Assembly (NCBI GenBank): GCA_036479655.1
Contig: JAZGFO010000056.1
Coordinates: forward strand, 20,451 to 84,450
Reading direction: 5' to 3'
Length of the DNA: 64,000 nt
Source: Saprospiraceae bacterium
GTDB taxonomy: Bacteria; Bacteroidota; Bacteroidia; Chitinophagales; Saprospiraceae
This document shows positions 1,278 through 57,617 of the stretch, piece after piece (within the stretch, counting starts at the first letter, position 1; the number at the start of each line of letters is the position of its first letter). The notes under the pieces are model-generated. The model was not told the origin of the DNA. It saw only the letters and a program-made list of their open reading frames with translations, and searched no databases. The position numbers and the translations under genes are program-made.

Positions 1278-1300
1278 GAAACATATAAAAATAATATATC

Positions 1301-3593: not shown

Positions 3594-3601
3594 TACATTT
3601 G
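3594..3601 (+). promoter_or_regulatory. Candidate Bacteroidota -7 promoter box (TACATTTG)
   Basis: Exact match to TAnnTTTG, 66 nt upstream of the ATG at 3667. No good -33 TTTG at the expected spacing. Confidence 0.3.
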
Positions 3602-3666
3602 CACTTATATTAGGCTAACTATCTGAGTATATCACTTGATAATAATAGCATTATTTAATAAATAAA

Positions 3667-4284: not shown

Positions 4285-4304
4285 TAAGGTTATAACCAAT
4301 AACT

Positions 4305-4344
4305 AAAAAGGCATTTGTGAATATTCACAAATGCCTTTTTTTTT
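4305..4344. terminator. Bidirectional intrinsic terminator between convergent genes
   Basis: Perfect 26-nt palindrome ggcatttgtgaatattcacaaatgcc (4310..4335), flanked by A5 upstream and T9 downstream. Confidence 0.85.
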
Positions 4345-4358
4345 AGTCTTTTCCTTTG

Positions 4359-5102: not shown

Positions 5103-5128
5103 ATAATTAAGTTATTCTTTTGTGATTA

Positions 5129-31500: not shown

Positions 31501-31863
31501 TGTGTGTACGGTTATTATGGCGACTTTTGTCAAATAAGTGATTGTATAGCCATCAATCTTACCATAGAAACAGATATACATATACCTAATATTTTTTCTC
31601 CAAATAATGATGGAATGAATGATCAGTTTATCTTCCAAACAAATAGGCAAGAAACAATGGTGCTATCTTCAACAGTTTTTGACAGGTGGGGTAATAAAGT
31701 GTACCAGACTACTGGTTACTTACTCACAGAAAATAGTATAGGTTGGGATGGAAAATTTAATAATAAAAATTGCCCTCCTGGAGTATATGTCTATCTTATA
31801 CAATACTTAAATCAAAATGACGAAGTTAAAATTAAGAAAGGAGATGTGACATTAGTCCGATAA
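28537..31863 (+). CDS. T9SS type-B (gliding-motility C-terminal domain) secreted protein, 1,108 aa
   Basis: Signal peptide. N-terminal domain paralogous to 9951..12938 (NLSWFAFTA, GIQAGIYQDC, GQTYYLFVDGCGGSVCDYTVVV). C-terminal IPNIFSPNNDGMNDQF ... FDRWGNKVY ... GVYVYLI. Confidence 0.9.
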   Translation: MRNYYKFILLFIVSISIYTIGHSQCNDPVPSPGLFCSTDHPDSPAPIICSLDCLDGFMGTLPDTLMMPQPDPLCDGGIPNNLSWFAFTAGSEIIDISIIPSNCTLPLDDNGNQTTIGIQAGIYQDCSWQNSIVCATDGCLDMVAETVNLFSNDFVIGQTYYLFVDGCGGSVCDYTVVVNAGDQAFEMQEITTISNDLNIDIENDTLCQNIDITFTLDDLDFDVNFDWTIFPSTTDYPSGSHPVIDTNSVTFTFSDTGRFEIYVYAYNFCDASTTDTFEVYVQALSDEYFSDITICQECFPIMLISPGDGCLNTPIGGTPTILTEDPNGDGVPGWLGTSLIHGPGLDTNLVNVNGCEYLQIVNVIEIPISPRVEVDYYFCLTDFPKTINGIIFNAPGDTKNLTLDGAASSGCDSLISITVHAIDLFGTTEIGNCDDGMVELGYNIINILPSDYENIEYEWYDENGDIVLDSDGIDSVLMVGGIGSYSVKITITKDGTSCAQTFGPFMVDVDNLSPETPTITFSPIEICQTLNTAQIYVATQNLGEDYIWTVSPNLPFLTGSSSDTIFVDITSGQDFEFCVHAVNGCGISDSICAEVIVNLSPESIFTVSAENCIDSIVTVTYNGTNGQLPSSNFFWNFNGGTIVNGADINSAGPFQLSFIAEGMYNIQLVIEENGCLSDTTIHPLSIFMPIDPPIINCTSNAGSVVFSWDSTGIDAVQINVVSGQSYTTTNDTSIVINGLTSSEMVSIELLFNADDVCGGVYSSSLCSSLPCPTVELQYISIDSVCLSSNTDNIVLEVNIIGDNSGIGTWSSPMIINDTIFDVSASGSGQFPISYSYIIGDCMFTMDTTIYIFDTPSFDYQINFPLCQEDGGLSMDIMTDSDNVTTLNGTVITNNIGIQIDQGSEYTIEVSNLNNCVVSEVYSSPIIEIMDPTISIIGNENILLGESENFSIDTDITIDNIQYIWVYDMDTICVDCESVSISPDYNGALCVYGYYGDFCQISDCIAINLTIETDIHIPNIFSPNNDGMNDQFIFQTNRQETMVLSSTVFDRWGNKVYQTTGYLLTENSIGWDGKFNNKNCPPGVYVYLIQYLNQNDEVKIKKGDVTLVR

Positions 31864-32152: not shown

Positions 32153-33664
32153 ATGAAGCTACCAACAATTATTTTACTATTCTTTTTCGGGTTCTCAATC
32201 AATGCAAGTGCTGGATGTATAAAGGGAAATTGTAAAAATGGAAAAGGTGTACTAATATCTCATTCTGGAGATAGATATGAAGGAAATTTTAAAAATAATA
32301 ATCTAACTGGAAAAGGAAAATGGAAATCTAAATCGGGAGATAGATATCGTGGAGAATTTGTGAATGGGAGAATCGAAGGAAAAGGTAAAATGACTTTTAC
32401 TAATGGAGATTATTATATCGGTGAATTTGTAAATGGACAGTTTCAAGGCCGAGGAAAATATACCTATGCTAATGGTCAGTATTCTATTGGCTCGTGGATC
32501 AATGGTAAAATTAGACAAGAATCTAATACAAACAATACAACATTTGTAGATAATAAAAGTGAAAATAATAACAATAGTTATACCAATACCACAATCAATA
32601 ATAATGAAGGAGCACCAATAGGATTTGCTAATATTACTAAAGATTGTACAATGAAAAATTGTCATAACGAATTAGGGGTATACAATTATTCTGATGGGTC
32701 TAGATACTTAGGTCAATTTATGAATGGATCACCTAAAGGAGAAGGAAGATGTGAATATTTCAATGGAGATCTTTATGAAGGAAGTTGGGCATTGCATGCT
32801 CCTCATGGAAAAGGAGTAATGACATTTTCTTCAGGTAAAAAGTATGCCGCTATCTGGGATTATGGCAATCCAAAAGAACAATTACTAGAGGATATTAACT
32901 ATGTTCCTAAGATCAATTCTAATAAACCCAAATTTTCAGAAGAAGTAAATGTGTATGCATTGGTAGTAGGTGTAGCAAGTTATCAGCATTTGTCTTCTCT
33001 TAAATATACTGACGATGATGCTTATCAAGTATATGCATTTCTCAAGAGCCCAGAAGGAGGAGCAATACCCAATGATAATATCAAAGTACTTATTGACGAT
33101 GTAGCCACTAAGAATAATATACTGATGTCGATGGAACAGTTATTCTCAAAAGCAGATGCTAATGATGTAGTACTACTATACTTATCTGGTCATGGATTTG
33201 ATGGCGCTTTTGTACCTAGTGATTTTGATGGTTATAAGAATCAATTGCCTTATAATGATATTATGAATGTACTTCAAAAATCAGATGCCAAATACAAATT
33301 AGCAATCGCAGATGCATGTCATTCTGGAAGTATTGTTAATAATAAAGGAATAGATTATGCACCAGCATTGGAATCTTACTATAATATATTAGAAGATTTG
33401 GACAATGGTGGTACAGCATTATTATTGTCTTCAGCAGCTAGCGAAGTCTCTTTAGAATATTCGGGGTTGCGCCAAGGAGTTTTTAGTCATTATTTGATGA
33501 ATGGACTTAAAGGTGCCGCAGATAGTAATCAAAACAAAGTAGTTACGCTTACAGAATTGTATGGTTACATCTACAGCAATGTAAGAAACTATACAGCTAA
33601 TAAACAAAGTCCAATATTGACTGGAAATTTTAATGGTAACATGCCTGTTGCAGTGATCAGATGA
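32153..33664 (+). CDS. MORN-repeat / caspase-family (peptidase C14) exported lipoprotein
   Basis: Signal plus lipobox-like INASAGC. Repeated YxGxxxxGxxxGxG MORN units in two blocks separated by an N-rich linker. C-terminal caspase fold with LYLSGHG (His347) and IADACHSG (Cys389). Confidence 0.85.
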   Translation: MKLPTIILLFFFGFSINASAGCIKGNCKNGKGVLISHSGDRYEGNFKNNNLTGKGKWKSKSGDRYRGEFVNGRIEGKGKMTFTNGDYYIGEFVNGQFQGRGKYTYANGQYSIGSWINGKIRQESNTNNTTFVDNKSENNNNSYTNTTINNNEGAPIGFANITKDCTMKNCHNELGVYNYSDGSRYLGQFMNGSPKGEGRCEYFNGDLYEGSWALHAPHGKGVMTFSSGKKYAAIWDYGNPKEQLLEDINYVPKINSNKPKFSEEVNVYALVVGVASYQHLSSLKYTDDDAYQVYAFLKSPEGGAIPNDNIKVLIDDVATKNNILMSMEQLFSKADANDVVLLYLSGHGFDGAFVPSDFDGYKNQLPYNDIMNVLQKSDAKYKLAIADACHSGSIVNNKGIDYAPALESYYNILEDLDNGGTALLLSSAASEVSLEYSGLRQGVFSHYLMNGLKGAADSNQNKVVTLTELYGYIYSNVRNYTANKQSPILTGNFNGNMPVAVIR

Positions 33665-41874: not shown

Positions 41875-42981
41875 CTATTTTATATCCGTTAAATAATCTT
41901 TGATAATCTCCGATAGATAACTACTAGCATTTTGCATTGAATCCTCAATATCTTTACTTCTTGACATTATGGTTTTAATCTCTATTTTAAGATTAAGGTT
42001 ATCTACAATGCTATCTCCTACTATTAACAACACAGGTTTATTGTGTTTTTTTGCCAATTTTAGAATAGCTCCAGTCACTTTTCCATTGATTGATTGATTA
42101 TCTAATCTTCCCTCACCGCTAATGATCAAATCACTTTGTAAAATATGATACTCCAAATTTGTACTTTCCGATATCATCTGCCATCCACTTTTTATATTCG
42201 CATTACACAGTCCAAATAATCCGGCTCCAATACCTCCTGCTGCTCCACCTCCACTTATTGCCGATATATCAACTGAAAATTTATCATTGACAACATTTGC
42301 AAATTCTTGTAGTCCAATATCTAAATATTCAATATCTTCTGCAGACGCACCTTTTTGAGCTCCAAATCCGTAAGCAGCTCCATTAGGACCAAATAGTACA
42401 TTTGTTACATCAGTAAAACAATTTATTGTAATTTTTGAAAAATCTATTTTAACATCTTTACTGTCAATATCTACAATTTTGACCAAGCTATCCCCTATTG
42501 GCAAAAGGGTTAATTGTTTTTCATCATAAAATTTAAATCCCAATGCAGCTGCAATACCAATACCAGCATCATTAGTGGCGCTCCCTCCAATAAATAAGTT
42601 GATTGTCGTATTCCCCTTTTTTATCGCATGTAATATTTGCTGTCCTGTTCCAAAAGTGCTTGTATATCGTGGATTTTGCTCATCTGTCGGCACTAACAAA
42701 AGCCCCGATGCTTTCGATAATTCTATATATGCACTCTTTTTATTTTCATAATAATATGTTGATATTTCTCTACCTTTACTATCAATTACCTCCGTTTCTA
42801 CTTTCGACAATTTTAAACTTGAGGCCAATATATCAATAGATCCTTCCCCTCCATCTGACATTGGGTGATTTATTATTTCTATAGTTTTATTGTAGCGCAG
42901 AATTCCAATAGACAATGCCTTACAGACCTCTTCAGCTGTCAATGATCCTTTAAATTTGTCCGGTACTAATAATATTTTCAA
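41875..42981 (-). CDS. glxK: Glycerate kinase
   Basis: (M)KILLVPDKFKGSLTAEEV ... MSDGGEGS ... GEGRLDNQS. A TTG start at 42981 gives the canonical N-terminus. The longer track ORF (to 43107) runs through the giant gene's terminator. Confidence 0.85.
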   Translation of the reverse strand: MKILLVPDKFKGSLTAEEVCKALSIGILRYNKTIEIINHPMSDGGEGSIDILASSLKLSKVETEVIDSKGREISTYYYENKKSAYIELSKASGLLLVPTDEQNPRYTSTFGTGQQILHAIKKGNTTINLFIGGSATNDAGIGIAAALGFKFYDEKQLTLLPIGDSLVKIVDIDSKDVKIDFSKITINCFTDVTNVLFGPNGAAYGFGAQKGASAEDIEYLDIGLQEFANVVNDKFSVDISAISGGGAAGGIGAGLFGLCNANIKSGWQMISESTNLEYHILQSDLIISGEGRLDNQSINGKVTGAILKLAKKHNKPVLLIVGDSIVDNLNLKIEIKTIMSRSKDIEDSMQNASSYLSEIIKDYLTDIK

Positions 42982-43062
42982 AATAGTAGTTCTAGTTACA
43001 AATACGCTCCGTATAAATTGGGTAGATTCAAGTAATAATGTCAAAGAAACAAAATTAGAATT

Positions 43063-43096
43063 AAAAAAGTGGAGCCATTTACTAACGACTCCACTT
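43063..43096 (-). terminator. Intrinsic terminator of the giant ORF
   Basis: Stem aagtggag / ctccactt (43067..43074 and 43089..43096) with a 14-nt loop. On the minus strand it is followed by T6 (the A-run 43063..43068). Confidence 0.65.
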
Positions 43097-43155
43097 ATAC
43101 TTATCATTTTGTCTCTTTCTTATCAAATTGACAAAAAACAAACTTTCATTTTTTA

Positions 43156-46100
43156 TTATTCAGTATCTATCACTGTTATATCGCCTGAGAATTCTTTTAC
43201 AGTACCGTCAATGAACAACAGCTCTGTATAGAATACATACACTCCTGAGACAACTAATGTTTCTTTAAACATTCCGTCCCAACCAACACTTGGGTCTCTC
43301 GGTGGCGCATTCTCTATATCAAACAGCTTTTCTCCCCATCTATCAAATATTTTTAAACTCAATACCGACTCTACATCATCACTCTTAATATAGAACACAT
43401 CATTATCACCATCTCCATTTGGAGAGATAATATTAGGGAATGCTACATCCACTATTTGTTCTAATTGAATTTGAATTTCGTCATGTGCCTCACAACCGTT
43501 TTCATTGGTTACTTGTACATAATAAGTTGTTACATTCTGTGATGGAGTAACTTCTATACTTCCACATTGTAATCCTTGACAGATCGTATCAGTATTATCT
43601 TCAAAATCTGTCCATACAATATTAGTAACTAAGGTACTATCATAGTCAATCGATAATGTAAATGTTTCTCCCAAGTCTCCAACTATATCAGCTCCTGCAT
43701 CAACATAGATAGCTGCAGGTTCTGTAATTGAAAATTCATATTCTTGGATACATCCATTTCCATCCATTATCGTCACTGTATAATCATTAGCTGGCAATGT
43801 ATTCCATGTTGAAGGATCCGTTACTGGTGCTCCCCCATTAAGAGAATATGTATAACTACCATCTCCACCAAACTGATTTATCAATTCTACTCCTCCATCA
43901 TCAAATCCATTACATGATATATCCGTAGGATTTACATCCATCTGAGGTAAATCATCAGAAGTAATAACTTCTACTTGATCTACATCAGTACAACCAGTAG
44001 CACTGTTTATTACAGTTAATTCATAAATTCCTTCATTCATTGCCGTAAAATTAATATCCGTTCCTACTTCAGTACCAGTATTAGTATTAACCCAACTATA
44101 AGAGATATCATCTCCTGTACTTGTCCCTGAATCTCCTAATTGTGCTGATGTAACATCACAATCCAACATCTTAGTATCTCCCGCATCAGCAGTTGGGTTA
44201 GGATCTAGGATCACTGTCACTGTTGTCTGGACATCAGGACAAGGTGCATTATTATCAATTATATAATCAAATGAATATGTACCTTCAGATTGTCCATCAG
44301 TATTGAATGTTGCATTTGCATCATCAAATCCTGTACTTCCAGTTGTTTCTACCCATGTACCTCCAGCATCTTGACCAGACAACTGAGCATTTAGATCTAT
44401 CACTTCTGCAAGTCCTGCACATAATCTGTAATCTTCTGCAATACCAGAGTTTGCTGGTTCTCCGATTAGAATACTAACTACTTCCGTTTCTGGACAATCT
44501 GGCAATGGTGATGTAATTGTATAAGTAAGATCGTAACTTCCTGCCACTACACCATCTATATCTAACATACTTCCAGATATAGTAAGTTCTGTAGAGCTCC
44601 AAGTACCCGGATTATTAATATCATCATATTGAGCTAAATCTACTGGTCCGTCCGTATTACAAACATCATCAGGATCTAATGGATTTATTGGAGGACAATT
44701 ACACTCATCTATAACTGTTACTGTTACTGTATGTACAAAATCTTCACAAGGATCAGCATTGTCGATGGTATATAAGAATGTATATATTCCTACTGGCACA
44801 TTTACAAAACTCGCATTTTGTTGTTCTATTAAAGTGCCAATTGGTACTCCCGAACTAGTTACTTCAGACCAAACTCCAGCACCAGCATTATCTACCAATG
44901 TTGTAAAGTTTACCATAGTAACTCCATTACCAGAATCATCATTACATACTTCTACTTCATCTATTCCATCTGTAAGTTGGTAATTAGAAACATTAAACAT
45001 AACTGACAATGATTGAGTACAAGTACCTGTTACCACTTGATCAAGCGTATATACTATTGTGTATGTACCTGCATTTAAATCAATGGCATCAAATGTGTTA
45101 CCAGTAATTCTATCAGATATGTCTGTTCCTCCAGAAGTAAACACTTCAAATGTACCTGGATCAGAACCATCTGCCAATATCTCTAATTCAAAAGAATCTG
45201 AATCATTACATACATCTGCTGGTGGAACTAACATTATCGGTGGACAATTACAATCTCCAACTGTAATTGTAATTACTGTAGATATATCTGTACATGGCTC
45301 AACTGCTACATTAGTATTAAAAGTAAAAGTAAACATAGAACCAACTGGCTGACCATCAAAATCTACATTTGAGATACCCGCACTTACCTCATCAATAGGT
45401 AAAGTTGGAGTTCCACCAGTCTGCGTCCAAGTACCAAGGGAAGATTCAGAATCTAACCAATCATATAAATTTGATACCGTAGAACCATTACCCGTATCCA
45501 TACTACATGGAGTAGGTCCTGTAATTGGAATAATAACTGGTTGTTTTCTAATTAACAATGAATTTATATAGGCCAATTCACAAGTAGGACCTGCACTATT
45601 ATTCAATGTCCATGTTATATCATATAGACCAGATGGTATATCTGCAGGATCTACCATACTAGTACCCATCAATGTAAGCCCTGAGGCTACTGACCAAGAC
45701 CCTAATAATCCTTCTGGATTTACCAATAAATCATTAAGATCAATAGGTAGTCCATTGTTACACAACGTATCTGTCAATACAGCTATTAATGGGCAATTGC
45801 AATCTCTTACTACAACTGTTACCTCCACAACTGCTGGCGGACACGGAGAGCCTACTGGCGCTTCTGATGTGTACTCAAATGTGAATGTCTCAGGAAAGTC
45901 TGTAAGACTGCTGCTTGATATCATTGATCCACCAGTAATATTTATATTAGTACCTGTCAATTGTGCCCATGTCCCTCCATCTGAAACACTATTAGATATC
46001 AAATCAAATAAGTCCATAGAAGTCGGTGAAGTCTGACCTTCAATATTACATAAATCGCCATCTCCAACAACTGATACTGTAGGCACTTCAAATACAGTAA

Positions 46101-49100
46101 ACATCTGCTCTGAATATTCTTCACATGCAGGTCCTCCTGAATTATCAAGTGTGAACCTTACAGTGTACACTCCTCCTACAATTCCGTTTGCATCAAATAT
46201 AGACCCAGTAATCAAGCCATTAATATCTTGAGCGACTGGTCCCGAAATAACACTCCATGAACCAGGATCTCCTGTCAATACAGACAGATTTAAATCATAA
46301 TCATCATCATTACACATATCTGGCACAAGTGATGTTGCTGGACTCGGGCATGGGCAAGCGACTACATTTACTACCATCACTTTTGATACATCCATACAAG
46401 GTTGCTCCGCATCATTAGTTGTGAATTCAAATACATAATATCCAGTTTGAATTCCTTCAAAACAAACATTATCTAAACCAAAATCACTAAAGACAAAACC
46501 AGGTATAGCACTTACTTGACTCCAAGTACCATTGCTACCACTTACTTGATTATTAAAATTGACACATAATGAATCTACACCACTATCTTCTCGACACACA
46601 TTTACAGTATCAGTAACAGTAATTATAGGTGTCGCAAAATCCATTACTTCAAATGATCCAAATGCATCACATCCAGAAACAATATCAATTGCAGAAACTG
46701 TAAATGTACCAGGGCCTGAAATAGTAAAAGTATTAGTTGTACTTAATACTGTAGTACCATCACTCCATTCAAAATTTATAAAATCTCCATTTACTTCTAT
46801 CGTTTCTCCTATTCCATCACAAATATTTACATCTCCTAAATTAATAGGTATATTATCATCTTGTATAAATGTGACTGTAGAATCATTGGTACATCCATTA
46901 ATGTCAGTTATTGTAAGTGTAACTGTAATCTCAGTAGAAACCGTAATCTCTGGTCCTGTTATAGGAAATTCTGGTGATGTAGATGTCCATACATAAGATA
47001 CTCCACCACTACCTGTCAATGTAGCAGAACTTCCAGCACAGAATACTGTTGATCCCGCCATATCTAATTCAGGAGGAGTATTAACATTAACTGTAAATAT
47101 CTCAATACTTGTACATCCCGTCAGATCAGTCGCTTCTACTTGATAAGTAGCTGTACTATCCGGTGAGAATATAACCGATCCTGTACTCCCAATATCAGGT
47201 GTCCAAACAAATGTATCAAAATCACCAGCATTGGTAACAGTAATCGTTGCTTCATCACCTATACAAATATTTTCAGTACCCGCTATCTCAATAGGTGTAC
47301 CTGTTGTAAGTGGTATATCTATCTCAATACTACTACTACATCCTGCAGGAGTACTCGCTACTATAGTATAACAAGTATAAGATAGCAAATCTACAGCAGG
47401 GAATGTAAATGTTCCAGAATTAGAAAACCCGTCTTCAAGATAATCTTCTTGTGGACATCCTCCGTATAGTACAAAGTCGGTAAGTGGGTTACCAAGAGCA
47501 TCAAATCCAACTATATTTATCAATGCTTCGGTATCTCCACATTCTATATCAAATACAGAAACATTTAGAAGTAATTCTCCTGTAATATTTACTGTCACAC
47601 ATACGGTCTCAGTACACCCAAAAAAGTCAGTCACCTCAGCACACAATTCATATGGACTATTAAATTCAGAACTCGCTTGTTCATTAATTATATATGTCTC
47701 GCCAAATCCACCAACTTCACCTACTAATCCTATAGGGCTAGAATTCCAAACTACATTATAAGGTGCAGATCCACTCAAGTAATCTATCGTCACAAAATAA
47801 TCTGGATCAAAAGGAAAGAAATTATCATCTTTACATACTTCTATTTCATCAGGTAATTCTATAATTACTGGTGGTTTTACATCTACTTGTACTTCTGCAA
47901 TATCTTCACATCCTAAATCATCAGTAACTGTCACAAAATAAGTGGTAGGAACTAATGGACAAACATTGATAGATGCTGTAGTTTCTCCAGTACTCCATTC
48001 ATAAGAATATGGCATACCAAAACCTCCAATAACATCTGGGGTAATATCTGTACAAAATCCATCACATATATAAACATCTGGAGGAAATGTAGCCATTAAT
48101 TCTGGGTATATGGTTACTATTATTTCGTTTTGAGGTCCTGGACAAGGTAATGTTTCATCCTCAGAATACACAGTATAGGTTACCATCTGTATATCATTTG
48201 TAAGATTCGTAAGATCATCTTCTATTGTACCCGTTCCATTTTCAAAAATATATGTCATTTCTCCACTTACGTTAGGATTATCTTCTACTTCAACAATAAT
48301 TGTATTAGTCGATCCGTCTACGGTAGATACAAAAATATTAGTAGTTCCATTAAAGCATATTTCTTCATCTTCTCCCTCTACAGCCGGTGGTGCTTCACAC
48401 TCGACTAACCATGGATAACTCACCATTGCTTTATCAATTAGGCATTCCCCAACTGGATCTTCCCAACATCCACCAACTCCATCAGAAAAGGTTTGGAAAC
48501 TAATCTGAAGATCTCGATTATCAATACAATCTTCATAAGAGTCAAAAGTTTTAACAATAAGAGTAAATTCCCAATCAATCTGAGACATAGTAGATCCAAT
48601 ACCCCATGCTTCCCCTGGAGAGCAATCATTATCACATCCAGCATTGCCACCATTACTAATCCAGAAATATCCACTCGGTAATATATCTCCCTCTACCATA
48701 AATTGTTGATCACATTCACTACAGTTTTCACACAATAGATTACATAGTCTCAATACACCGTTATTATCAATATAAGTACACATATGTGGTAAAGGTTCTT
48801 GGAGAATTGGAGCACAAGCACCACCTTCTTCGAACCAAGTAGCGACTCCTGCAGGTGTACCTGTCGGAGCATTTGCAACATAATCAAAATTTTCAAGATC
48901 CCATCCGGGTCCAAATTTAGGTACAATACCTATTAACCAATCTTGTCCAGTCAGTGTAGCATCGTAGAAGAAACTAATATTTATTGTTACTTCTTCTCCA
49001 GCACAAAATGGTCCTTCTAATGCTCCTTCATTTTCTCGTTCGATTACTTCCATTACAAGAGATGGATCTGTACAATCACTTTCATCTCCTAAGCATATTA

Positions 49101-52100
49101 CCGCATTTATTACTGATGCTACACATATCTTAAAAGTTCCATCATCAATATTTCCATCTTGAGGTAATGATGCTGGATCTACAGTAACTGCTACCCAATA
49201 AGTAGAAAATGCATCTTGAACAGGAGTTTGATGCAATTCTGGTGTGTTATCACCATTACTACAAGGAGGAGCACCTCCAAAAGCCATCACTTCTAAAGAA
49301 GAACAATCATCTCCTCCATAGACAGACCATATAGGTGTCCAGTTTCCTTCTGTTTCTACTGTTGTAAATAATTGAGCTGCCTCATCGTCAGTATTTACTT
49401 GAAACCAAACTGTCGGCATATTAATCATGTCTGGGCATCCTCCAAAATTATCATCTTCAGGACATCCAAAATCAATACAAGATGTAACACAAGTATATAT
49501 AATATCAAATGTCTCTGGTGTCTCCGGTTCAATTGGGGCTGCATCAGCAGTATCGATACATTCGTCCGACATGTCTCCACAAGTAGCAGGGTTAATTGTC
49601 AGAATAAATTCTCCGCATTCATCATCAGCATCATCAGTTGTAACTTTTACAAATAGTATTTGACCAGGATCAGAACAATTTCCAATCTTAATATCTAAAT
49701 TAGTATCTGTACAGGAAGAAGCAATAGTTTCTCCAAATCCACTACATCCTTGGTTTGGTGTCCCCCAATAAATTTCTACAGTTACATTGCCACCAATTCC
49801 ATCTGGCCCACCAACTTCCTCAAGAAAAATTTGATATCCATCATCATCTTCATTAGGCGTATAAGTATACCAGACTGCTGCATCTTCTGTAGCTGCACTA
49901 CAATCGACATTTTCAAGATCAGCAAGTGATCCATCTTCATTTTCATCTTTTGGTCCTCTAGCACAACAAGTCGTTCCTTGATGAGATCCACCACCTGTAA
50001 GGTCAAAAGGAGGATTATCATCCGTATCACAAGGGTCGTCATTTATTGGCGGCACCTCTATTTTGATATTTAAAATAAATCCACCTTCGATATCTGTTTC
50101 TGATCCTACAGCTATATAATAAGTTGTATTATCTTGAATATTTATATCTTCTTCAATAGCTGATGTACCTCCTTCTGTAGTTACGCATATTACATCATTA
50201 TTTACAGCAGTCGGTAGATCAGGACAACCATCATCAATAAATAATCCCCATGTAGGATCAATAATTGGTTCGGGAGACCCATTGTCAGGCTCTATTTCTA
50301 TACTTACAGTAGATGCATTGGCTGGTGTAGTAAATGTAAACCATACTACAGCACTTTTATCAAAAGCACACATATCTCCTGGATCAGCAAATTCTTCAGG
50401 ACAAGCCTGAACATTACAATCTGAAAAATCTAACCATTTACAAGTTTCTGAAACATCTAATACTGTTGCAAATCCACAATCATCATTTACAGAGCAAGGA
50501 TCTGTCTGTAATGTCTCTGTAATCAATATATCAAATTCTCCTTCATCTCCTTCAGCAGATGATACTTGAATCAAATAAGTATTTCCAGCAGGTGGACAAT
50601 CTACCTCTATCGGCTCTATATTTGACGGTTGTCCACATTCTTGACCTGCCATAATTACTTGGACTTGAGAACAATTCGCTGCATCATACTCTAACACTGT
50701 TAGTACTACACCATTCTGTATACCCATAGTCGGATCATTTGTATAGAATACTGTAAAACTTCCAACTCCATCAGGTACTGTATAAGAAAAATATACTGTA
50801 CTATTAAACATATCAGCATCACTACAATCACCTGTTACATAATTCCATGTTTCAGGAGTTGCTGCTACATTGTTATCACAATCTAAAGCAATTGAACCTA
50901 CACCATCTCCATTGACTAATGGATATGGAGAACAAGGATCATCATTACAACTTGTAACTACATTTACACATAAGTCAAAGTCTCCACCAATTTGATCTAC
51001 ATTATCTAAAGCTACAGCAATAATATAAGTAGTATTTGCATTTACTTCCATTCCAGTAAGATTGGCAGCTGACCCATCTCCTTCAACACATAGTGACTCT
51101 GCTGTTTCAGCTGTTGGCGGTTCTGCACATCCAGCTTGAAATACTGAAAATATCGGATTGCCATCAGCACTACTTAGTATCACAGACATGGTAGCGTCTT
51201 CTGCAAGCGCATCAGTTGTTATTTCATAAAATACTGTTGGTAAATCATTATATGCACATACCGCTGCAAAGAAATTTTCAGGACATGCATCAATATTACA
51301 ATCTGTAACACACACTTGACCTCCGTCTGTAATCGGGGTAGCTGTTGGAGCTGTATCATCTGCATCAGAACACAAATCATTATCTACACACAATGGATCT
51401 GGTACAATAGGATCTATGGTAAGATCAAAATCTCCTGCTTCAGCATCATTTGTACTAACCATAATAAAAGCCATTGTATTCTCTTCAAGACAATCAAACT
51501 TCATTTCTACTCCACCTTCTGCTCCACATTCTGTCAATTGGTCTGCATCTAAGAAGGTAACATTTCCACCACCACATGCTGTGTTTTCAAATACACCAAC
51601 TGCAAAATCTTGCCCAGTACCTGTACTTGTCAAAGTTGCTATAAAACCAGTTGTTCCAGCAGGGATAGTATATTCGTACCAAACAGAATTTTCGTCTTGA
51701 GTACCACAAGTAGTATCATCAACATCCATTGTTGCACATGTAGTAGTTCCAGAGACTACAGTATTTACGTCTCCTGCTGTTGTTATTTCTTCTGCTGTAC
51801 ATGGATCATCATTCATCGGTGGTACAAGTACCTTAATCTCAAACATTATACTTGCAGAACCATTGATATTATCAGCTCCAATACCTATTAAGTAGGTCAT
51901 TGGAGGATTGGCCAAAATGTCTATATCTGTAACATTATTTCCAACTGATATTTCACACGCTCCAGATATTGAAGTAGGAACCAAGTCACTACAGTCAGCA
52001 GGATTGCCAGCAAAAACTGAGTAAAAGCCATTACCTGTTGCAGAACTAATTAAATTAATTTGAATCTCCGAAGCATCATCATTTGTGACATCTATCTCAT

Positions 52101-55100
52101 ACCAAACTACTGGAAAATCGTCAAATCCACAATCTGAAGCAAAATCAAATTGCTCCGGACAAGCGTCTATTGTAGATGCATCTACTGGATACCAAACACA
52201 AGTAGGATCAACTACAATTACTGTAGGGTTACTACACATATCATTAGCTACTGGAGATGTGTACTCTGTTGCTAAAATATCAAACCCACCTGAATTGAAG
52301 TCGGAAGTAGATATTCTTATAACATATGTTCCTGGTCCGATACATTCAAAATCTTCCACCAAAGTACCAGAAGTACTACAAGCTTCTTCTTCAAAAGTAG
52401 AGTTATCTGCTATACATCCAGCTGCTGTACTTTCAAATACTACAATATTTACATCTCCCATAAATCCATTGGTCGCTGTAGATGTAACTGTAAGGTCAAA
52501 TCCATTGACTCCATCTGGCACAGTAAATTCATACCATACAGTATTTTCTTCATCAACATCATTACATACATTACTATCAAAAGGTATGATTGCTTGGGTA
52601 GCACAAGTAGTAGTACCCATTGTTGAAACGCCATTATTAAGTATAACACCATCTACACATTCATCATTTGATGGTGCTACTAATACTTTTATTTCAAATT
52701 GAATACTATTTGATCCATTTATATCATCAGCTCCTACACCTATCAAGTAGGTCATTGGTCCATTGGCCAAGATATCTATAATTGTTCCATTATTACCTAA
52801 AGCAGTTTCACATACTCCAGATATTGAAGAAGGAATCAAGTCATTACAATCTATTGGATTACCAGCAAAAATTGAGTAAAATGCATTTCCCGAGGCAGAA
52901 CTAATTAAATTAATTTGTATTTCTGTTGCATTATCATCAGTTACATCTATTTCGTACCAAACTACTGGAAAATCGTCAAATCCACAATCTGAAGCAAAAT
53001 CAAATTGCTCTGGACATGCGTCTACTGTAGTTGCATCTACTGGGTACCATATACACACAGGATCTATTGTGATTACTGTAGGGTTACTACACATATCATT
53101 AGCCACTGGAGATGTGTACTCTGCAGCTAAAATATCAAATTCTCCTGCATTAGCCTCTGATGTAGATATTCTTATTACATATGTTCCAGGTCCGATACAT
53201 TCAAAGTCTTCCACCAAAGTACCAGAAGTACTACAAGCCTCTTCTTCAAAAGTAGAGTTATCTGCTATACAGCCAGCAGCTGTACTTTCAAATACTACAA
53301 TATTTACATCTCCCATAAATCCATTGGTCGCTGTAGATGTAACTGTAAGGTCAAATCCATTGACTCCATCTGGTACAGTAAACTCATACCATACAGTATT
53401 TTCTTCGTCTTGATTCGTACAAACATTACTATCAAAAGGAATAATCTCTTGAGTAGCACAGGTTGTTGTCCCCATTGTTGAAACGCCATTATTAAGTATA
53501 ACGCCATCTACACATTCATCGTTTGCAGGTAGTTCGTTAATTTTTATTTCGAATGAGTGTGGACCTTCTATATCATCTCCAATAGCTATTAAGTAAGTCT
53601 GTCCGGACATGATATCGGTAGGACCGTAAGGGCCTGTTCCAAAAGCACAAGTAAAACCAGCTAAAGCAACAGGATTATCACAATCTGCTGTTGACTCCAT
53701 AATCATTGTAGATACTGTACCTGTACCATTTGTATTTTGTATTTCAACAGTTATTGGATTGGTAGTTGTCGGTGCTGTAAATGAATACCAAACAACAGGT
53801 ATTTGTTCCAAAGTACAAGAATTGAATGTAAAATCCTCAGGACATGCATTTGCAGTATTACCATTTATAGTTTTCCATTCACAAGTATTATCCAGTGCTG
53901 GATCCCATATGCTTAATGCATCAGTACATTCATCATTATTATCATTAGGTTGGGTAGTGTTTTCATTGGTTATAATCGTAAAATCCCCTTCTTCTGTAAC
54001 TGCACTTCCTACCATAATTATAATAGTAACCCCTTGTTCTATACAATTAATAGATGCCATATTACCCAATATATTACAATAGTCGGCTACTGTCGTACCT
54101 TCAAAAATTGTCATTGCATTACAATCATCTGTAAATACTACCATAGATAATCCTGTAGCGGCAGATCCATTAGAAGCATCTCCAGCAAATGTAATTTCTA
54201 AATCTACATTTGCAACTGTATTATTAGTATATTCATAAAATACTTGGTGGTCATTAGCAATAGTTTGTCCACAAAAGTCAAAGTTACCTGTAGCACAATT
54301 TGTAGAACCAGTTGCTGTAGTAAAAATGTCAGGATTAGTAGCTGAATCACAATCATTATTTATAGGTGATTCGTTAATTTTTATATCAAAAGAATGTACG
54401 CCCTCGCCTCCTGGATCAGCTACAGCTATCAAATATGTAGTACCTGATACTATATCATAAGGTCCAAATGGTCCAACTCCACTATTACACATTGCAGTTG
54501 GTAATACAGTTTGTACATCACAATCTAATGTCATTTCAAATATTGTAGCATATAATGCGCCTATTCCAGATAAGTTTTGCATTTCTACTGAAAGCGAGTT
54601 TGTAGAAATTGGTGCAGTAAATGAGTACCAAACTGTAGGGTCATCATCATAATTGCATCCTACCAAATTAAAATCTTCGGGACATGCTTCTGCAGTACTT
54701 CCATTAATCGTTTTCCAAGAACACGTATTGTCAGCTGGAACATTATCTCCATCCCATATCAATAGTGCATTGCTACATTCATCATTATCATCTGTAGGTT
54801 GAGTATTAATTACATTTGTCAATATATTAAAATCACCTTCATCACCATCACTACTTCCAACAACAATTATAATTGTTTCTCCATTTTCAATACAATCAAT
54901 CATATTTGCAGTACCTAAAACATTACAATAATCTGATGCTGTAGTGCCATTAAAAAGTGTAAATGCATTACAATCCGTTATTACCAACATTGATACATTT
55001 GCTGCTGGTGTACCATTAGTTGCATCTGCTGAAAATGTAACTTCTAAATCTATATTAACTCCAGTACTATTAGTATATTGATAAAATACTTGATGGTCAT

Positions 55101-56961
55101 TTGTTGTAGTCATCCCACAAAAAATCACCTCTCCATCAGCACAAGTAGTGCTACCCATAGTTGTCGCTGTTATATCAGGATTAGTCCCTAAGTCACAATC
55201 ATCATTGGTAGGTGCACTTGTCAATTCTATATCTAAGTTAAATGTCCCTGACATTTGATTTGTCTGAGGTGCAACTGCTATATAATACTGCGTATTTGGC
55301 AATAGAGTAATATTAGCTTCTATGCCATCTGTCTGACAACTATTTACTATAGATCCAGTACAACTACCTTCAATTATAGCAAACATTCCTGCTCCCATTG
55401 ATATCGAAGTAAGATTAACCTCAGCTTCTTGGGTAGTTACTGTATTAGTAGTAAAAGTGTACCATACTGTAGCTTCCGTATCAAAAGCACATGTACCTAT
55501 AGCAGCAGCTTCTGGACAAGCATTCTCTGTTGTTCCTGATACTGAAAAAGTAGTACAGTTAGGCGGTATTATAACTGTCGGAGCTGAAGAAATAGGATCA
55601 TTAAACAAGTCTGCATTCATACATCCATCATTAGTAGGTGGTGTACTTGCTGTCAATGTCATAGAATAATTGCCCTCAAAAGCATCACAAGATGCTACTT
55701 GAATAAGGTAAGTACCTGGCATAAGACAAAAATCTTCATTTGTATTTCCATTATATTCATAACCATTAAAAGCTGTTGCATCTGTACATGCTGTCAAAAT
55801 AGTTACTTGAGAAGTTGAAATCGTTCCTTCATTATAGTTAAGATTAACATTTGTATTCCCTGTGCCACCTATTGTAAATTCATAATAAACAGTACTATAA
55901 GAACCCGAACCACAGCCCGCTATTAAACCAGGAGTAAAGGATTCTGAAGTCGAAGAGGCTCCAAAGTTATCAACTTGTGTTATTGATGTACCAACTCCAT
56001 CTACTAATGTTCCTAAAGCCTCTGGAATACTACAATCATCTCCCACCAATGGTGGTAAAGGACTATTTACACATATATTAAATGATCCATCAGAACCATA
56101 AGGATATGCAACTTGTAAATAATAAGTTTGACCAGCAATCAACATGTCTTCTAACATCAAATTACCATTATTATCGCATTGTACTAATGTCAATCCACCA
56201 CAAGCACCTGAATAAAGTGCTACAGATAAACCTGTACCTGTTGTGTTTTCGACATACAAATCATCACCCGCAGTAAAACTATACCACATCGTAGCTTCGT
56301 TGTCAAAAATACAAACTCCATCAGCAACCATATCCCCTTTTAATTCTTGAAAATTATTAAGTGTTGTACCTGTAATATTGTTGGCACAAGTAATGACTGT
56401 ACCATCTGTACCTGGGTCAAGAGAAACTGCATTAGCACAATTATCTCCAAGTGCCAATGATGGTTGTCCTCCACTTAAGCCAGCAGTAACAGTAAGATCA
56501 TATGCGCCTTGATTGGCAGCATCGGTCAATATCACTATATAATAGGTAGTGCTCTGTGTAAAGCAGTTCTCAAATGTTTGAGGATTCATAATATTAGGAT
56601 CATGACAAGCCAAAAAAGTATTCATATTAGGCGTACCACAATTAGCTAAAGAAGCTTCAATAATTACAGCAATATGCCCTGCTCCAACTAAATCAATAGT
56701 TATATCGTTTTCATTGACAAGATCAATTCTATACCACTCATCTATAGTAAGTGTAGTAGGATTGTCACAGGATGCTGTCATTTGTGGAGCTCCACCCCAA
56801 AAACCACTTGCTGTATTATCAGCTGTAGTACCAGAAACAAGATTGCCAGAATTCAAATCAGCTGCACCTAAGGATGTAGCCGTGTTACAATCTTCTGACT
56901 GGGCAAAACTTATGTTAATAAGTGCCAAAATAAGGGAAAAGCCGAGTATTAGTCGTCTCAT
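43156..56961 (-). CDS. Giant (4,601 aa) T9SS type-B cargo / surface repeat protein
   Basis: Uninterrupted 13,806-nt ORF. Signal peptide MRRLILGFSLILALINISFAQ. 18 Cys-rich ~140-aa domains, a unique hub and Ig-like repeats. C-terminal FPNIISPNGDGDNDVFYI ... FDRWGEKLF ... GVYVFY sorting domain. Confidence 0.95.
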   Translation of the reverse strand: MRRLILGFSLILALINISFAQSEDCNTATSLGAADLNSGNLVSGTTADNTASGFWGGAPQMTASCDNPTTLTIDEWYRIDLVNENDITIDLVGAGHIAVIIEASLANCGTPNMNTFLACHDPNIMNPQTFENCFTQSTTYYIVILTDAANQGAYDLTVTAGLSGGQPSLALGDNCANAVSLDPGTDGTVITCANNITGTTLNNFQELKGDMVADGVCIFDNEATMWYSFTAGDDLYVENTTGTGLSVALYSGACGGLTLVQCDNNGNLMLEDMLIAGQTYYLQVAYPYGSDGSFNICVNSPLPPLVGDDCSIPEALGTLVDGVGTSITQVDNFGASSTSESFTPGLIAGCGSGSYSTVYYEFTIGGTGNTNVNLNYNEGTISTSQVTILTACTDATAFNGYEYNGNTNEDFCLMPGTYLIQVASCDAFEGNYSMTLTASTPPTNDGCMNADLFNDPISSAPTVIIPPNCTTFSVSGTTENACPEAAAIGTCAFDTEATVWYTFTTNTVTTQEAEVNLTSISMGAGMFAIIEGSCTGSIVNSCQTDGIEANITLLPNTQYYIAVAPQTNQMSGTFNLDIELTSAPTNDDCDLGTNPDITATTMGSTTCADGEVIFCGMTTTNDHQVFYQYTNSTGVNIDLEVTFSADATNGTPAANVSMLVITDCNAFTLFNGTTASDYCNVLGTANMIDCIENGETIIIVVGSSDGDEGDFNILTNVINTQPTDDNDECSNALLIWDGDNVPADNTCSWKTINGSTAEACPEDFNLVGCNYDDDPTVWYSFTAPISTNSLSVEMQNLSGIGALYATIFEMTLDCDVQTVLPTAMCNSGVGPFGPYDIVSGTTYLIAVADPGGEGVHSFDIKINESPINNDCDSATNPDIFTTATGSTNCATGNFDFCGQTIANDHQVFYEYTNNTVANVDLEITFAGDASNGSAATGLSMVVFTDDCNAMTIFEGTTVADYCNILGNMASINCIEQGVTIIIMVGSAVTEEGDFTIITNENTTQPNDNNDECTDALSIWDPALDNTCEWKTINGNTANACPEDFTFNSCTLEQIPVVWYSFTAPTTTNPITVEIQNTNGTGTVSTMIMESTADCDNPVALAGFTCAFGTGPYGPTDIMSGQTYLIAIGDDIEGPHSFEIKINELPANDECVDGVILNNGVSTMGTTTCATQEIIPFDSNVCTNQDEENTVWYEFTVPDGVNGFDLTVTSTATNGFMGDVNIVVFESTAAGCIADNSTFEEEACSTSGTLVEDFECIGPGTYVIRISTSEANAGEFDILAAEYTSPVANDMCSNPTVITIDPVCIWYPVDATTVDACPEQFDFASDCGFDDFPVVWYEIDVTDDNATEIQINLISSASGNAFYSIFAGNPIDCNDLIPSSISGVCETALGNNGTIIDILANGPMTYLIGVGADDINGSNSIQFEIKVLVAPSNDECVDGVILNNGVSTMGTTTCATQAIIPFDSNVCNDVDEENTVWYEFTVPDGVNGFDLTVTSTATNGFMGDVNIVVFESTAAGCIADNSTFEEEACSTSGTLVEDFECIGPGTYVIRISTSDFNSGGFDILATEYTSPVANDMCSNPTVIVVDPTCVWYPVDASTIDACPEQFDFASDCGFDDFPVVWYEIDVTNDDASEIQINLISSATGNGFYSVFAGNPADCSDLVPTSISGACEISVGNNVTDIDILANPPMTYLIGIGADNINGSASIMFEIKVLVPPMNDDPCTAEEITTAGDVNTVVSGTTTCATMDVDDTTCGTQDENSVWYEYTIPAGTTGFIATLTSTGTGQDFAVGVFENTACGGGNVTFLDADQLTECGAEGGVEMKFDCLEENTMAFIMVSTNDAEAGDFDLTIDPIVPDPLCVDNDLCSDADDTAPTATPITDGGQVCVTDCNIDACPENFFAAVCAYNDLPTVFYEITTDALAEDATMSVILSSADGNPIFSVFQAGCAEPPTAETAESLCVEGDGSAANLTGMEVNANTTYIIAVALDNVDQIGGDFDLCVNVVTSCNDDPCSPYPLVNGDGVGSIALDCDNNVAATPETWNYVTGDCSDADMFNSTVYFSYTVPDGVGSFTVFYTNDPTMGIQNGVVLTVLEYDAANCSQVQVIMAGQECGQPSNIEPIEVDCPPAGNTYLIQVSSAEGDEGEFDILITETLQTDPCSVNDDCGFATVLDVSETCKWLDFSDCNVQACPEEFADPGDMCAFDKSAVVWFTFTTPANASTVSIEIEPDNGSPEPIIDPTWGLFIDDGCPDLPTAVNNDVICVTTEGGTSAIEEDINIQDNTTYYIAVGSETDIEGGFILNIKIEVPPINDDPCDTDDNPPFDLTGGGSHQGTTCCARGPKDENEDGSLADLENVDCSAATEDAAVWYTYTPNEDDDGYQIFLEEVGGPDGIGGNVTVEIYWGTPNQGCSGFGETIASSCTDTNLDIKIGNCSDPGQILFVKVTTDDADDECGEFILTINPATCGDMSDECIDTADAAPIEPETPETFDIIYTCVTSCIDFGCPEDDNFGGCPDMINMPTVWFQVNTDDEAAQLFTTVETEGNWTPIWSVYGGDDCSSLEVMAFGGAPPCSNGDNTPELHQTPVQDAFSTYWVAVTVDPASLPQDGNIDDGTFKICVASVINAVICLGDESDCTDPSLVMEVIERENEGALEGPFCAGEEVTINISFFYDATLTGQDWLIGIVPKFGPGWDLENFDYVANAPTGTPAGVATWFEEGGACAPILQEPLPHMCTYIDNNGVLRLCNLLCENCSECDQQFMVEGDILPSGYFWISNGGNAGCDNDCSPGEAWGIGSTMSQIDWEFTLIVKTFDSYEDCIDNRDLQISFQTFSDGVGGCWEDPVGECLIDKAMVSYPWLVECEAPPAVEGEDEEICFNGTTNIFVSTVDGSTNTIIVEVEDNPNVSGEMTYIFENGTGTIEDDLTNLTNDIQMVTYTVYSEDETLPCPGPQNEIIVTIYPELMATFPPDVYICDGFCTDITPDVIGGFGMPYSYEWSTGETTASINVCPLVPTTYFVTVTDDLGCEDIAEVQVDVKPPVIIELPDEIEVCKDDNFFPFDPDYFVTIDYLSGSAPYNVVWNSSPIGLVGEVGGFGETYIINEQASSEFNSPYELCAEVTDFFGCTETVCVTVNITGELLLNVSVFDIECGDTEALINIVGFDALGNPLTDFVLYGGCPQEDYLEDGFSNSGTFTFPAVDLLSYTCYTIVASTPAGCSSSIEIDIPLTTGTPIEIAGTENICIGDEATITVTNAGDFDTFVWTPDIGSTGSVIFSPDSTATYQVEATDLTGCTSIEIFTVNVNTPPELDMAGSTVFCAGSSATLTGSGGVSYVWTSTSPEFPITGPEITVSTEITVTLTITDINGCTNDSTVTFIQDDNIPINLGDVNICDGIGETIEVNGDFINFEWSDGTTVLSTTNTFTISGPGTFTVSAIDIVSGCDAFGSFEVMDFATPIITVTDTVNVCREDSGVDSLCVNFNNQVSGSNGTWSQVSAIPGFVFSDFGLDNVCFEGIQTGYYVFEFTTNDAEQPCMDVSKVMVVNVVACPCPSPATSLVPDMCNDDDYDLNLSVLTGDPGSWSVISGPVAQDINGLITGSIFDANGIVGGVYTVRFTLDNSGGPACEEYSEQMFTVFEVPTVSVVGDGDLCNIEGQTSPTSMDLFDLISNSVSDGGTWAQLTGTNINITGGSMISSSSLTDFPETFTFEYTSEAPVGSPCPPAVVEVTVVVRDCNCPLIAVLTDTLCNNGLPIDLNDLLVNPEGLLGSWSVASGLTLMGTSMVDPADIPSGLYDITWTLNNSAGPTCELAYINSLLIRKQPVIIPITGPTPCSMDTGNGSTVSNLYDWLDSESSLGTWTQTGGTPTLPIDEVSAGISNVDFDGQPVGSMFTFTFNTNVAVEPCTDISTVITITVGDCNCPPIMLVPPADVCNDSDSFELEILADGSDPGTFEVFTSGGTDISDRITGNTFDAIDLNAGTYTIVYTLDQVVTGTCTQSLSVMFNVSNYQLTDGIDEVEVCNDDSGNGVTMVNFTTLVDNAGAGVWSEVTSSGVPIGTLIEQQNASFVNVPVGIYTFLYTIDNADPCEDFVHTVTVTVIDECNCPPINPLDPDDVCNTDGPVDLAQYDDINNPGTWSSTELTISGSMLDIDGVVAGSYDLTYTITSPLPDCPETEVVSILIGEPANSGIAEDYRLCAGLAEVIDLNAQLSGQDAGGTWVETTGSTGFDDANATFNTDGQSEGTYSFDYIIDNNAPCPDVQTTVTVILDPNPTADAGDTKMLDCDVTSAQLGDSGTSTGDDISYSWVNTNTGTEVGTDINFTAMNEGIYELTVINSATGCTDVDQVEVITSDDLPQMDVNPTDISCNGFDDGGVELINQFGGDGSYTYSLNGGAPVTDPSTWNTLPANDYTVTIMDGNGCIQEYEFSITEPAAIYVDAGADIVGDLGETFTLSIDYDSTLVTNIVWTDFEDNTDTICQGLQCGSIEVTPSQNVTTYYVQVTNENGCEAHDEIQIQLEQIVDVAFPNIISPNGDGDNDVFYIKSDDVESVLSLKIFDRWGEKLFDIENAPPRDPSVGWDGMFKETLVVSGVYVFYTELLFIDGTVKEFSGDITVIDTE
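44200..46365 (-). repeat. Four in-frame ~170-187-aa modules each opening with C(N/P)CP
   Basis: Module starts read in translation: ACPCPSP (~46365), DCNCPLI (~45805), DCNCPPI (~45255), ECNCPPI (~44710). Each contains a GxW(S/T) and a G(x)Y(x)(I/F)xYT pattern twice. Confidence 0.7.
51821..53530 (-). repeat. Young in-frame tandem duplication, 2 x 855 bp (285 codons)
   Basis: Units 52676..53530 and 51821..52675. The offset was measured from identical strings (attactgtagggttactacacatatcattagc at 52217 and 53072). The core is about 95 percent or more identical, including a ~90-nt run with no difference. Confidence 0.9.
53531..55222 (-). repeat. Older in-frame tandem duplication, 2 x ~846 bp
   Basis: Units 54376..55222 and 53531..54375 encode the same two-domain module (NDDCDLGTNPDITATTMGSTTCADG... 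versus NNDCDSATNPDIFTTATGSTNCATG...). Roughly 60-65 percent aa identity by eye. Confidence 0.8.
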
Positions 56962-57544
56962 AGTAGTTAGTATGTTAATTCAATAATAAATTTAATGCAC
57001 GCAATGTATGCTTACACGTAAGATGGGAAACCGCCTGTCTGGAACAAAGAAAATGGAAAATGTCTTTGTTAAAGTATTCGTATTGTCATGCAATATAAGA
57101 AATATTATATTGAAAAAACAAATAAAAGTAAAATCAAATATTTATAAACCATATGACCATCTTCAATATGATATAATAAACTCCTCAAAATTAACGAAGT
57201 CAGATTATTATACATTAAAAAATATTAGATAAACAATAAAAAAATTAAAAGCTTTTAACATTAAGAATACTCAATTATTGGGCAAAATATTTATTATTTG
57301 CATTTATATATGTGTAAATACGATCCAAAATATTTCTAAATGAGAATTTTTTATTTAAAAATGATAGTTTACTTCAATTAAGTAAAAGTTATTTCCTAAA
57401 AAAATCAATAAATTATGTCATAATAACAAATGAAATATCTTTTCAAGCTCTAATATATTTTAATAAAGAAGGAAAATAAACAGGATAAACACACCCTTCA
57501 AACAACAACAAAGCCCCAACAAATGAATGCTGAGGCTATGTTTG

Positions 57545-57617
57545 TGGTGCCTCCCAGATTTGAACTGGGGACACATGGATTTTCAGTCCATTGCTCTACC
57601 AACTGAGCTAAGGCACC
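57545..57617 (-). tRNA. tRNA-Phe (anticodon GAA)
   Basis: The reverse complement GGTGCCTTAGCTCAGTTGGTAGAGCAATGGACTGAAAATCCATGTGTCCCCAGTTCAAATCTGGGAGGCACCA folds as a 73-nt cloverleaf. Acceptor GGTGCCT/AGGCACC, D stem GCTC/GAGC, anticodon stem ATGGA/TCCAT with loop CTGAAAA, T stem CCCAG/CTGGG. CCA is not encoded. Confidence 0.97.

Follow-up and report, generated by a model that had tools for sequence, protein, structure and literature searches.

Giant proteins that are exported through a type IX secretion system (T9SS) and carry a type B sorting domain act as the moving components in Bacteroidota gliding (SprB) and in ixotrophic prey capture (GhpA), and to our knowledge these two alone are understood in depth. 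We analysed a 64,000-nucleotide stretch of contig JAZGFO010000056.1 (assembly GCA_036479655.1; hereafter the window) from a Saprospiraceae bacterium, in which a single minus-strand open reading frame (ORF) at 43156..56961 encodes a 4,601-residue protein of this kind. We propose that this protein is probably a long adhesive filament of the SprB/GhpA class, anchored in the outer membrane, in which a GhpA-like stalk bears a new distal module. Our analysis establishes its domain architecture, the predicted folds of its N-terminal repeats and of a central domain, the type of its C-terminal sorting domain (CTD), the homology of its stalk and CTD to GhpA and its conservation in a family of related proteins. 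While giant type B surface proteins as such are known from SprB and GhpA, the outer half made of an array of PPC domains, the unannotated conserved domain and the orphan gene layout are new. The locus defines a third recurrent giant type B architecture in the same order, combining a GhpA-like stalk with a different outer half.

The gene is listed as one ATG-initiated frame of 4,601 codons (13.8 kb), and its translation shows a terminal stop alone. In DNA of about 35% G+C, a frame of 13.8 kb cannot have arisen by chance. The mature protein would have a mass of ~485 kDa and a pI of ~4.05, with 15.3% Asp plus Glu, 1% Lys plus Arg and 187 Cys residues, most of them in conserved alignment columns. 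A sequence-only reading of this DNA had described a signal peptide, 18 Cys-rich domains, a ~240-residue unrepeated Cys/Trp-rich segment, ~1,600 residues of immunoglobulin (Ig)-like repeats and a type B sorting domain in an uninterrupted frame lacking any catalytic or toxin motif, and we recovered all of these parts. Judged by eye, the first 20 residues (MRRLILGFSLILALINISFA; 56902..56961) have n-, h- and c-regions as in Sec signal peptides, with MRR, a hydrophobic core and SFA/Q, predicted cleavage before Gln21 and similar N-termini in orthologues. Iterated hidden Markov model (HMM) searches then delimit exactly 18 contiguous domains over residues 20-2628, namely the tandem ~145-residue, Cys-rich A domains (residues 21-2628; 49078..56901; E 1e-27 to 1e-44). 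They are followed by the Cys/Trp-rich, unrepeated M domain (residues ~2632-2875; 48337..49068).

The remaining Ig-like part comprises about 1,630 residues. It starts with five to six Ig/PKD-like domains (residues 2876-3366; 46864..48336), which include the Ig_7 'CHU_C-associated' type and give weak Pfam matches to Ig_7, PKD_5 and K319L-like_PKD. Next come five B repeats of ~183 residues (residues 3367-4254; 44200..46863; iterated HMM E 1e-60 to 1e-75). Each repeat is composed of two Ig-like domains, and a C-x-C-P motif stands at the start of four of them. Three further Ig-like domains (residues 4255-4506; 43444..44199) contain one marginal SprB repeat and one Ig_7 domain; searched alone, this segment scores 28.7 bits against PF13573 (cut-off 28) and 22.2 bits against PF19081. 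The protein ends in the T9SS type B CTD (residues 4507-4601; 43156..43443 including the stop codon), in which residues 4507-4587 match both TIGR04131 (41.8 bits, cut-off 35) and PF13585 (49 bits, cut-off 27) above the curated cut-offs. No enzyme or toxin family was detected anywhere in the protein with Pfam or NCBIfam.

The 18 A domains are, according to structure prediction, jelly-roll beta-sandwiches resembling PPC and collagen-binding domains. They alternate between two subtypes, one with a P-x-N-D-x-C start and G-T-T-x-C-A, the other with A-C-P-E-x-F and V-W-Y, and ten Cys per repeat pair are invariant or nearly so. The whole protein scores 32.6 bits (cut-off 27) against PF23759 (GBD_T9SS_assoc, galactose-binding-domain-like). 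Searched singly, the repeats all stay below the Pfam gathering thresholds, with weak matches to PF23759 in seven of 18 (best E 2.5e-4) and to PF04151 (PPC) in three (best E 0.002). We modelled repeats 9-10 with AlphaFold2 (AF2), using an alignment of the protein's own repeat pairs together with those of relatives, and obtained a predicted local distance difference test (pLDDT) of 84 and a predicted template modelling score (pTM) of 0.77. Among PDB entries, Foldseek matches this model best to the tandem collagen-binding domain of ColG (5iku, E 1.2e-9); the PPC domain of a B. anthracis collagenase (5sv5) aligns with a TMt of 0.74, and further matches are tandem jelly-roll or CUB-like pairs. Single-sequence searches of the PDB with a repeat pair or with the whole N-terminal half returned nothing meaningful.

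The A repeats resemble the ColG and PPC domains in their predicted jelly-roll fold, with which the weak Pfam matches agree. They differ from the ColG and PPC domains in sequence (~12-14% identity), in being arrayed as 18 tandem copies with ~5 conserved Cys each, and in the absence of a protease. An N-D near the repeat start is at least 90% conserved in both subtypes, and we take this motif to resemble the Ca2+-binding N-terminal motif of ColG. Repeats 17-18 (R17-R18; residues 2305-2628; 49078..50049) are the best-conserved pair in per-region identity to orthologues, and together with M they form a unit that is also found in short relatives with a type A CTD.

The M domain emerges from our alignments as a conserved, family-defining domain. 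At 47-75% identity to the eight orthologues, it surpasses every other region of the protein (mostly 24-68%). Trp, Gly, Pro and Cys are frequent among its conserved columns, which contain a C-N-x-x-C-x-x-C-x-x-C stretch (C109-C119). Neither the window sequence nor 34 relatives match Pfam in this domain, and searches of the PDB by sequence and by profile found no match. An AF2 model based on a 35-sequence alignment is mostly beta and well predicted (pLDDT 86, pTM 0.83). Foldseek searches with this model gave a best E of 2e-3 and TM <= 0.36 in the PDB and nothing significant in BFVD; the beta-sandwich, pilin and AgI/II-type structures among these insignificant matches were not built upon. We also considered M as a diverged copy of an A or B repeat, and a profile-profile comparison with hhalign shows no relation. 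The MopE metal-binding motif was dropped as a clue to M, since its position in the short relatives is a long way downstream of that domain. No His, Ser or Lys is invariant in M, which therefore looks unlike a standard hydrolase, and a role in binding or assembly is what we infer for it.

GhpA provides the closest comparison for the C-terminal half. This T9SS substrate of Aureispira forms a heptameric, 240-nm appendage that is anchored in the outer membrane and exposes distal N-terminal hooks; it comprises an AgI/II-like N-terminal hook module (residues 26-1402) and a stem of 52 Ig-like repeats, has inter-domain disulfides and is densely O-glycosylated, and ghpB (PorP-like) and ghpC (PorE-like) lie directly downstream of its gene (Lien et al., bioRxiv 10.1101/2024.01.29.577165). 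We built a profile (A6) of the C-terminal half from the window protein and six orthologues, and searched the PDB. It matches GhpA of Aureispira sp. CCB-QB1 (9flp_A, 5,898 residues) with E 6.7e-134 and 451 bits in 18 stretches. Fifteen of the matches involve profile positions 551-850, which are of Ig_7 type and run into the first B repeat, and are spread over GhpA 1138-4950 (stem and base). Of the others, positions 1124-1718 align with GhpA 4780-5366 and positions 1359-1783 with GhpA 5348-5779 (the region covering B3-B5 spans GhpA 4780-5779), and the CTD aligns with GhpA 5803-5884, so that the last three stretches follow roughly the GhpA order toward the C-terminus. A profile of the window's five B repeats alone did not reach GhpA, and neither the A-pair profile (A4) nor the M profile (A2) matched full-length GhpA at E <= 1 and E <= 5, respectively.

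Taken together, these alignments indicate that the window protein shares the stalk and the sorting signal of GhpA and not its head, its stem length or its gene neighbourhood. The two are alike in being giant proteins from Saprospiraceae that carry a Sec signal peptide, an Ig_7-type array, many Cys and a C-terminal T9SS sorting domain. In place of the hook module, the window protein has 18 PPC-like domains and M, and its stalk counts ~18 Ig-like domains instead of 52. PorP and PorE genes are not adjacent; a terminator and then a glycerate kinase gene lie downstream. The two proteins also differ in potential glycosylation. GhpA is reported to be heavily glycosylated; in the window protein, by contrast, the sequon for O-glycosylation in Bacteroidota, D[ST][AILVMT], is depleted (11 against 31 expected, z = -3.8), along with a strong depletion of the Asp-Ser/Thr dipeptide. 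The same depletion (z -3.8 to -4.8) is seen in six of the eight orthologous giants (L001, L003, L008, L011, L018 and L020), while the 37 other ORFs of the window show none (z = +1.2). The B-repeat profile also gave a weak match to All3314 (7b5h, E 2.6e-4), which we took as generic Ig-like similarity; All3314 belongs to a thylakoid-anchored contractile injection system of Anabaena, and the match falls on the first Ig-like domain of the B repeats (45805..46359, minus strand).

SprB of Flavobacterium johnsoniae is, like the window protein, a giant repetitive cargo with a type B CTD, which would be held at the surface by a PorP/SprF-like protein. The SprB repeat (PF13573) occurs in one stretch of the window protein, at 24.1 bits in the whole-protein search and below the cut-off of 28. 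The repeat families of the two proteins appear to differ, and the window has no operon of the sprC-sprD-sprB-sprF type. From these comparisons, the giant protein appears to be an orthologue of neither GhpA nor SprB.

We then used the M domain to delineate the family. An exhaustive search with the M profile identified 363 cluster representatives at E <= 1e-3, 141 of them at E <= 1e-30; word-indexed homologue searches with M were nearly blind, returning five matches with the sequence and one with the 35-sequence alignment. By architecture, the representatives divide into giants of 3.4-5.2 thousand residues, which read A(10-21)-M-B(3-8)-CTD (type B), and short forms of 0.7-1.8 thousand residues, in which M is preceded by 0-3 A repeats. 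Toward their C-termini, the short forms have DUF7619, in some cases MopE motifs, and finally a type A CTD (PF18962), and they are annotated as 'MopE-related', 'TIGR01451 repeat protein' or 'T9SS type A sorting domain-containing protein'. Giants and short type A cargos (such as P0162, P0170 and P0177) have an R17-R18-M-Ig core in common, for which most short-form matches show 45-63% identity over 41-100% of a 1,062-residue query. The short proteins differ in carrying about two repeats before M, in lacking the five 183-residue repeats and in their C-terminus. A literature search for PF23759 or for PPC-containing T9SS adhesins of Saprospiraceae yielded nothing relevant and no paper describing the family.

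A scan of one genome per species located 21 loci. They lie in metagenome-assembled genomes (MAGs) assigned to Saprospiraceae, Saprospirales or Lewinellaceae, except one in a generic Bacteroidota MAG (L010) and three on contigs of other assignment, L004 and L009 (MAG named Halioglobus sp.) and L014 (MAG named Deltaproteobacteria). These three contigs have 36-39% G+C and Saprospirales-like genes, and are probably binning errors and not cases of horizontal transfer. Among nine giants the number of A repeats varies from 10 to 21, while the distance from M to the C-terminus is ~1,960-2,003 residues in six and 1,574-1,818 residues in three. Read across these alignments, stalk length is largely conserved and the outer A array is variable. 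Two of the giants (L001 and L002) are tandem paralogues of 4,209 and 4,341-4,374 residues, ~13.5 kb apart at 2.319-2.354 Mb of record OZ246013.1. Another large gene of the Ig/CHU_C type comes after this pair, and a short-form relative is encoded elsewhere on the same record.

The profile match of the C-terminal half to GhpA strengthens the earlier view of the protein as a surface filament or adhesin of great length, and we infer its secretion, anchoring, orientation, length and adhesive role as follows. The protein would be exported by Sec through its N-terminal signal peptide and would fold in the periplasm, where many disulfides are expected because the 187 Cys lie mostly in conserved columns. 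Both the T9SS and a PorP/SprF-like shuttle or anchor, whose gene would lie in another part of the genome, would then recognise the type B CTD, leaving the protein held at the outer membrane via its C-terminus. Such anchorage is known for type B CTD proteins, which bind PorP-like proteins at the surface (PMC9143113). A stalk of constant length would be built from the C-terminal ~1,700 residues, whose ~18 Ig-like domains resemble the stem and base of GhpA by homology; from this stalk, M and the 18 PPC/collagen-binding-like modules would point outward, disulfide-braced and probably stabilised by Ca2+. Scaling from the 240 nm of the 5,898-residue GhpA and from typical domain sizes, we estimate a filament of ~140-190 nm. 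Its role would be adhesion at a distance, with capture or holding of cells or particles, possibly in a Ca2+-dependent manner.

Several observations weigh against this proposal. The similarity to GhpA is thinly spread, at 15-63 bits per stretch with high bias, and a single-sequence phmmer search of the PDB with the C-terminal 1,716 residues found nothing meaningful. The CTD part of the match is generic, as two other type B cargos of the window score 117-177 bits there, higher than GhpA itself. Our analysis gave no indication of a ligand. The R17-R18-M unit lies mid-molecule in the giants and not at the tip, a poor fit to a binding head at the tip and a position that fits neatly into none of the readings. 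Finally, the giant is an 'orphan' type B cargo with no partner gene nearby: we found no PorP/SprF, PorE or T9SS core gene in the window, within ~10 kb beyond each of its ends or directly beside the orthologues. This last point is compatible with known orphan type B cargos, three of which use a common unlinked shuttle in F. johnsoniae (PMC12618676).

A more specific possibility is that the protein is a true grappling hook, that is, a GhpA-type heptameric prey-catching appendage with bundled Ig stalks, an M neck and PPC capture arms that serves ixotrophic predation. The profile matches to the GhpA stem, base and CTD, the fixed stalk length combined with a variable distal array, and the plentiful conserved Cys, which recall the inter-domain disulfides of GhpA, are all in line with such an appendage. 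The host belongs to the family of the ixotrophic Aureispira and Saprospira, and ixotrophy depends on Ca2+ (bioRxiv 10.1101/2024.01.29.577165), as does the fold that the repeats resemble. We nevertheless consider this unlikely: the GhpA hook module has no counterpart here, the repeat-pair and M profiles miss GhpA, the Ig-like domains number ~18 and not 52, and ghpB and ghpC equivalents (PorP/PorE) are missing downstream. Nor did we find any type VI secretion system gene in the window, in its ~10-kb contig flanks or directly beside the orthologues.

In a variant that we regard as equally speculative, the A(n)-M-Ig-CTD proteins would constitute a second, undescribed multimeric capture appendage, with bundled GhpA-like stalks, M as neck or ligand hub, and tentacle arms of 10-21 Ca2+-stabilised PPC modules. 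Should this be true, differences in the length of the arms would serve to adjust their reach or the range of prey.

That the protein is instead an SprB-like motile adhesin, driven over the cell surface by the gliding machinery, seems rather improbable. Its type B CTD, the single marginal SprB repeat, the NCBI name 'gliding motility-associated' and the fact that Saprospiraceae glide (bioRxiv 10.1101/2024.01.29.577165) would agree with such a role. Against it stand the sub-threshold whole-protein score of that one repeat, the absence of an sprC/sprD/sprF-type operon from a gene flanked by a tRNA gene and a terminator, and the membership in a family that has its own defining domain and that our searches found in Saprospirales MAGs only.

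We hold it to be quite improbable that the protein is a released or loosely attached scaffold that binds insoluble protein or polysaccharide, like the PPC and collagen-binding modules of secreted proteases. The fold of the repeats is that of such modules, the conserved aromatic residues of M may suggest sugar binding, and the short relatives have type A CTDs, hence a different route to the surface or medium. The giant lacks a catalytic partner domain, its gene does not lie in a degradative neighbourhood, and the type B CTD proteins studied to date remain bound to PorP-like proteins (PMC9143113).

If the giants are indeed surface appendages, as we favour, they would add to the devices for contact and capture that are known from Saprospiraceae, and R17-R18-M would be a compact module, present also in short proteins, that could be expressed for ligand testing. 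Giant T9SS adhesins are common, and Saprospiraceae are abundant in marine and wastewater systems. Even if the protein were merely another long adhesin, several hundred unannotated protein clusters would gain a better annotation.

The integrity of the long ORF is documented by public records. NCBI entry MEE9438046.1, from a Saprospiraceae MAG and named 'gliding motility-associated C-terminal domain-containing protein', is identical to the window protein, and its 90% cluster has two more 4,601-residue members on contigs of 88.6 and 53.8 kb, each with one residue different. The frame is thus unbroken in three records, which may come from shared samples and are not fully independent. Intact, collinear orthologues of 3,057-5,302 residues are present in other Saprospirales MAGs, including the tandem copies on OZ246013.1, a single 8.07-Mb record titled 'chromosome: 1'. 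Within the array, repeats 9-10 and 11-12 (51820..53529, minus strand) are 92% and 80% identical in amino acids and 85.7% identical over 855 nt of DNA, in which no more than 95 nt in a row are the same. Their codons differ at 53 synonymous and 38 non-synonymous positions, a pattern that fits purifying selection. Repeats 5-6 and 7-8, at ~60% amino acid identity, represent an older duplication, and the remaining repeat comparisons mostly give 12-40%. The recent tandem duplication (R9-12) and the older one (R5-8), each of a repeat pair, show the mode in which the array grows. A pseudogene or an assembly artefact from collapsed or expanded repeats, for which the short-read metagenome source and the repeat pair duplicated at 85.7% nucleotide identity could be invoked, is hardly credible and largely refuted by the recurrence of the ORF in three records, the brevity of the identical run, the divergence of the other repeats and the intact collinear orthologues, two of them on one 8.07-Mb contig.

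The flanking DNA agrees with the sequence-only reading, which had assigned the gene its own terminator, an AT-rich upstream region of ~580 bp and a monocistronic layout. Downstream, 60 nt past the stop codon, a hairpin of 13 pairs followed by a T-run resembles an intrinsic terminator (43067..43096, minus strand); shuffled sequence yields 0.1 such sites. The listed glycerate kinase ORF (41875..43107, minus strand) is 42 codons too long, as the NCBIfam model aligns from residue 43, where an in-frame TTG (42981) marks the actual start of glycerate kinase. This start leaves the hairpin in intergenic DNA. Upstream, a 582-bp leader and putative promoter region of 23% G+C (56962..57543) separates the ATG from a tRNA-Phe gene on the same minus strand (57544..57617). 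One TAnnTTTG motif lies 232 nt 5' of the ATG; the motif is common across the window. With a terminator on its 3' side and the leader and tRNA-Phe on its 5' side, the giant gene can reasonably be regarded as monocistronic. Public gene calls place a 74-residue gene inside the leader (L022 4057..4281, plus strand, corresponding to about 57008..57232 of the window); it has no family match and is probably spurious.

The neighbouring genes are of housekeeping type and encode a SurA-like peptidyl-prolyl isomerase, RsmA, a LysE transporter, a thiolase, glycerate kinase and a TraB/GumN protein. No synteny was found between the window and the orthologous loci, and the genes in ~10 kb beyond each window end of the source contig include nothing relevant. 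The window encodes two further T9SS type B cargos, of 995 residues (9951..12938, minus strand) and 1,108 residues (28537..31863, plus strand), which score 57-62 bits against PF13585, the second also 52.6 bits against TIGR04131. Neither has an adjoining PorP/SprF gene, and the first is followed by a TonB-dependent-receptor-like gene (7631..9919). A 1,112-residue protein (23238..26576, minus strand) has DUF4175 as its sole match, and the adjoining 478-residue ORF (26790..28226) matches no family. At 32153..33664, on the plus strand, a 503-residue protein combines MORN repeats with a caspase (Peptidase_C14) domain.

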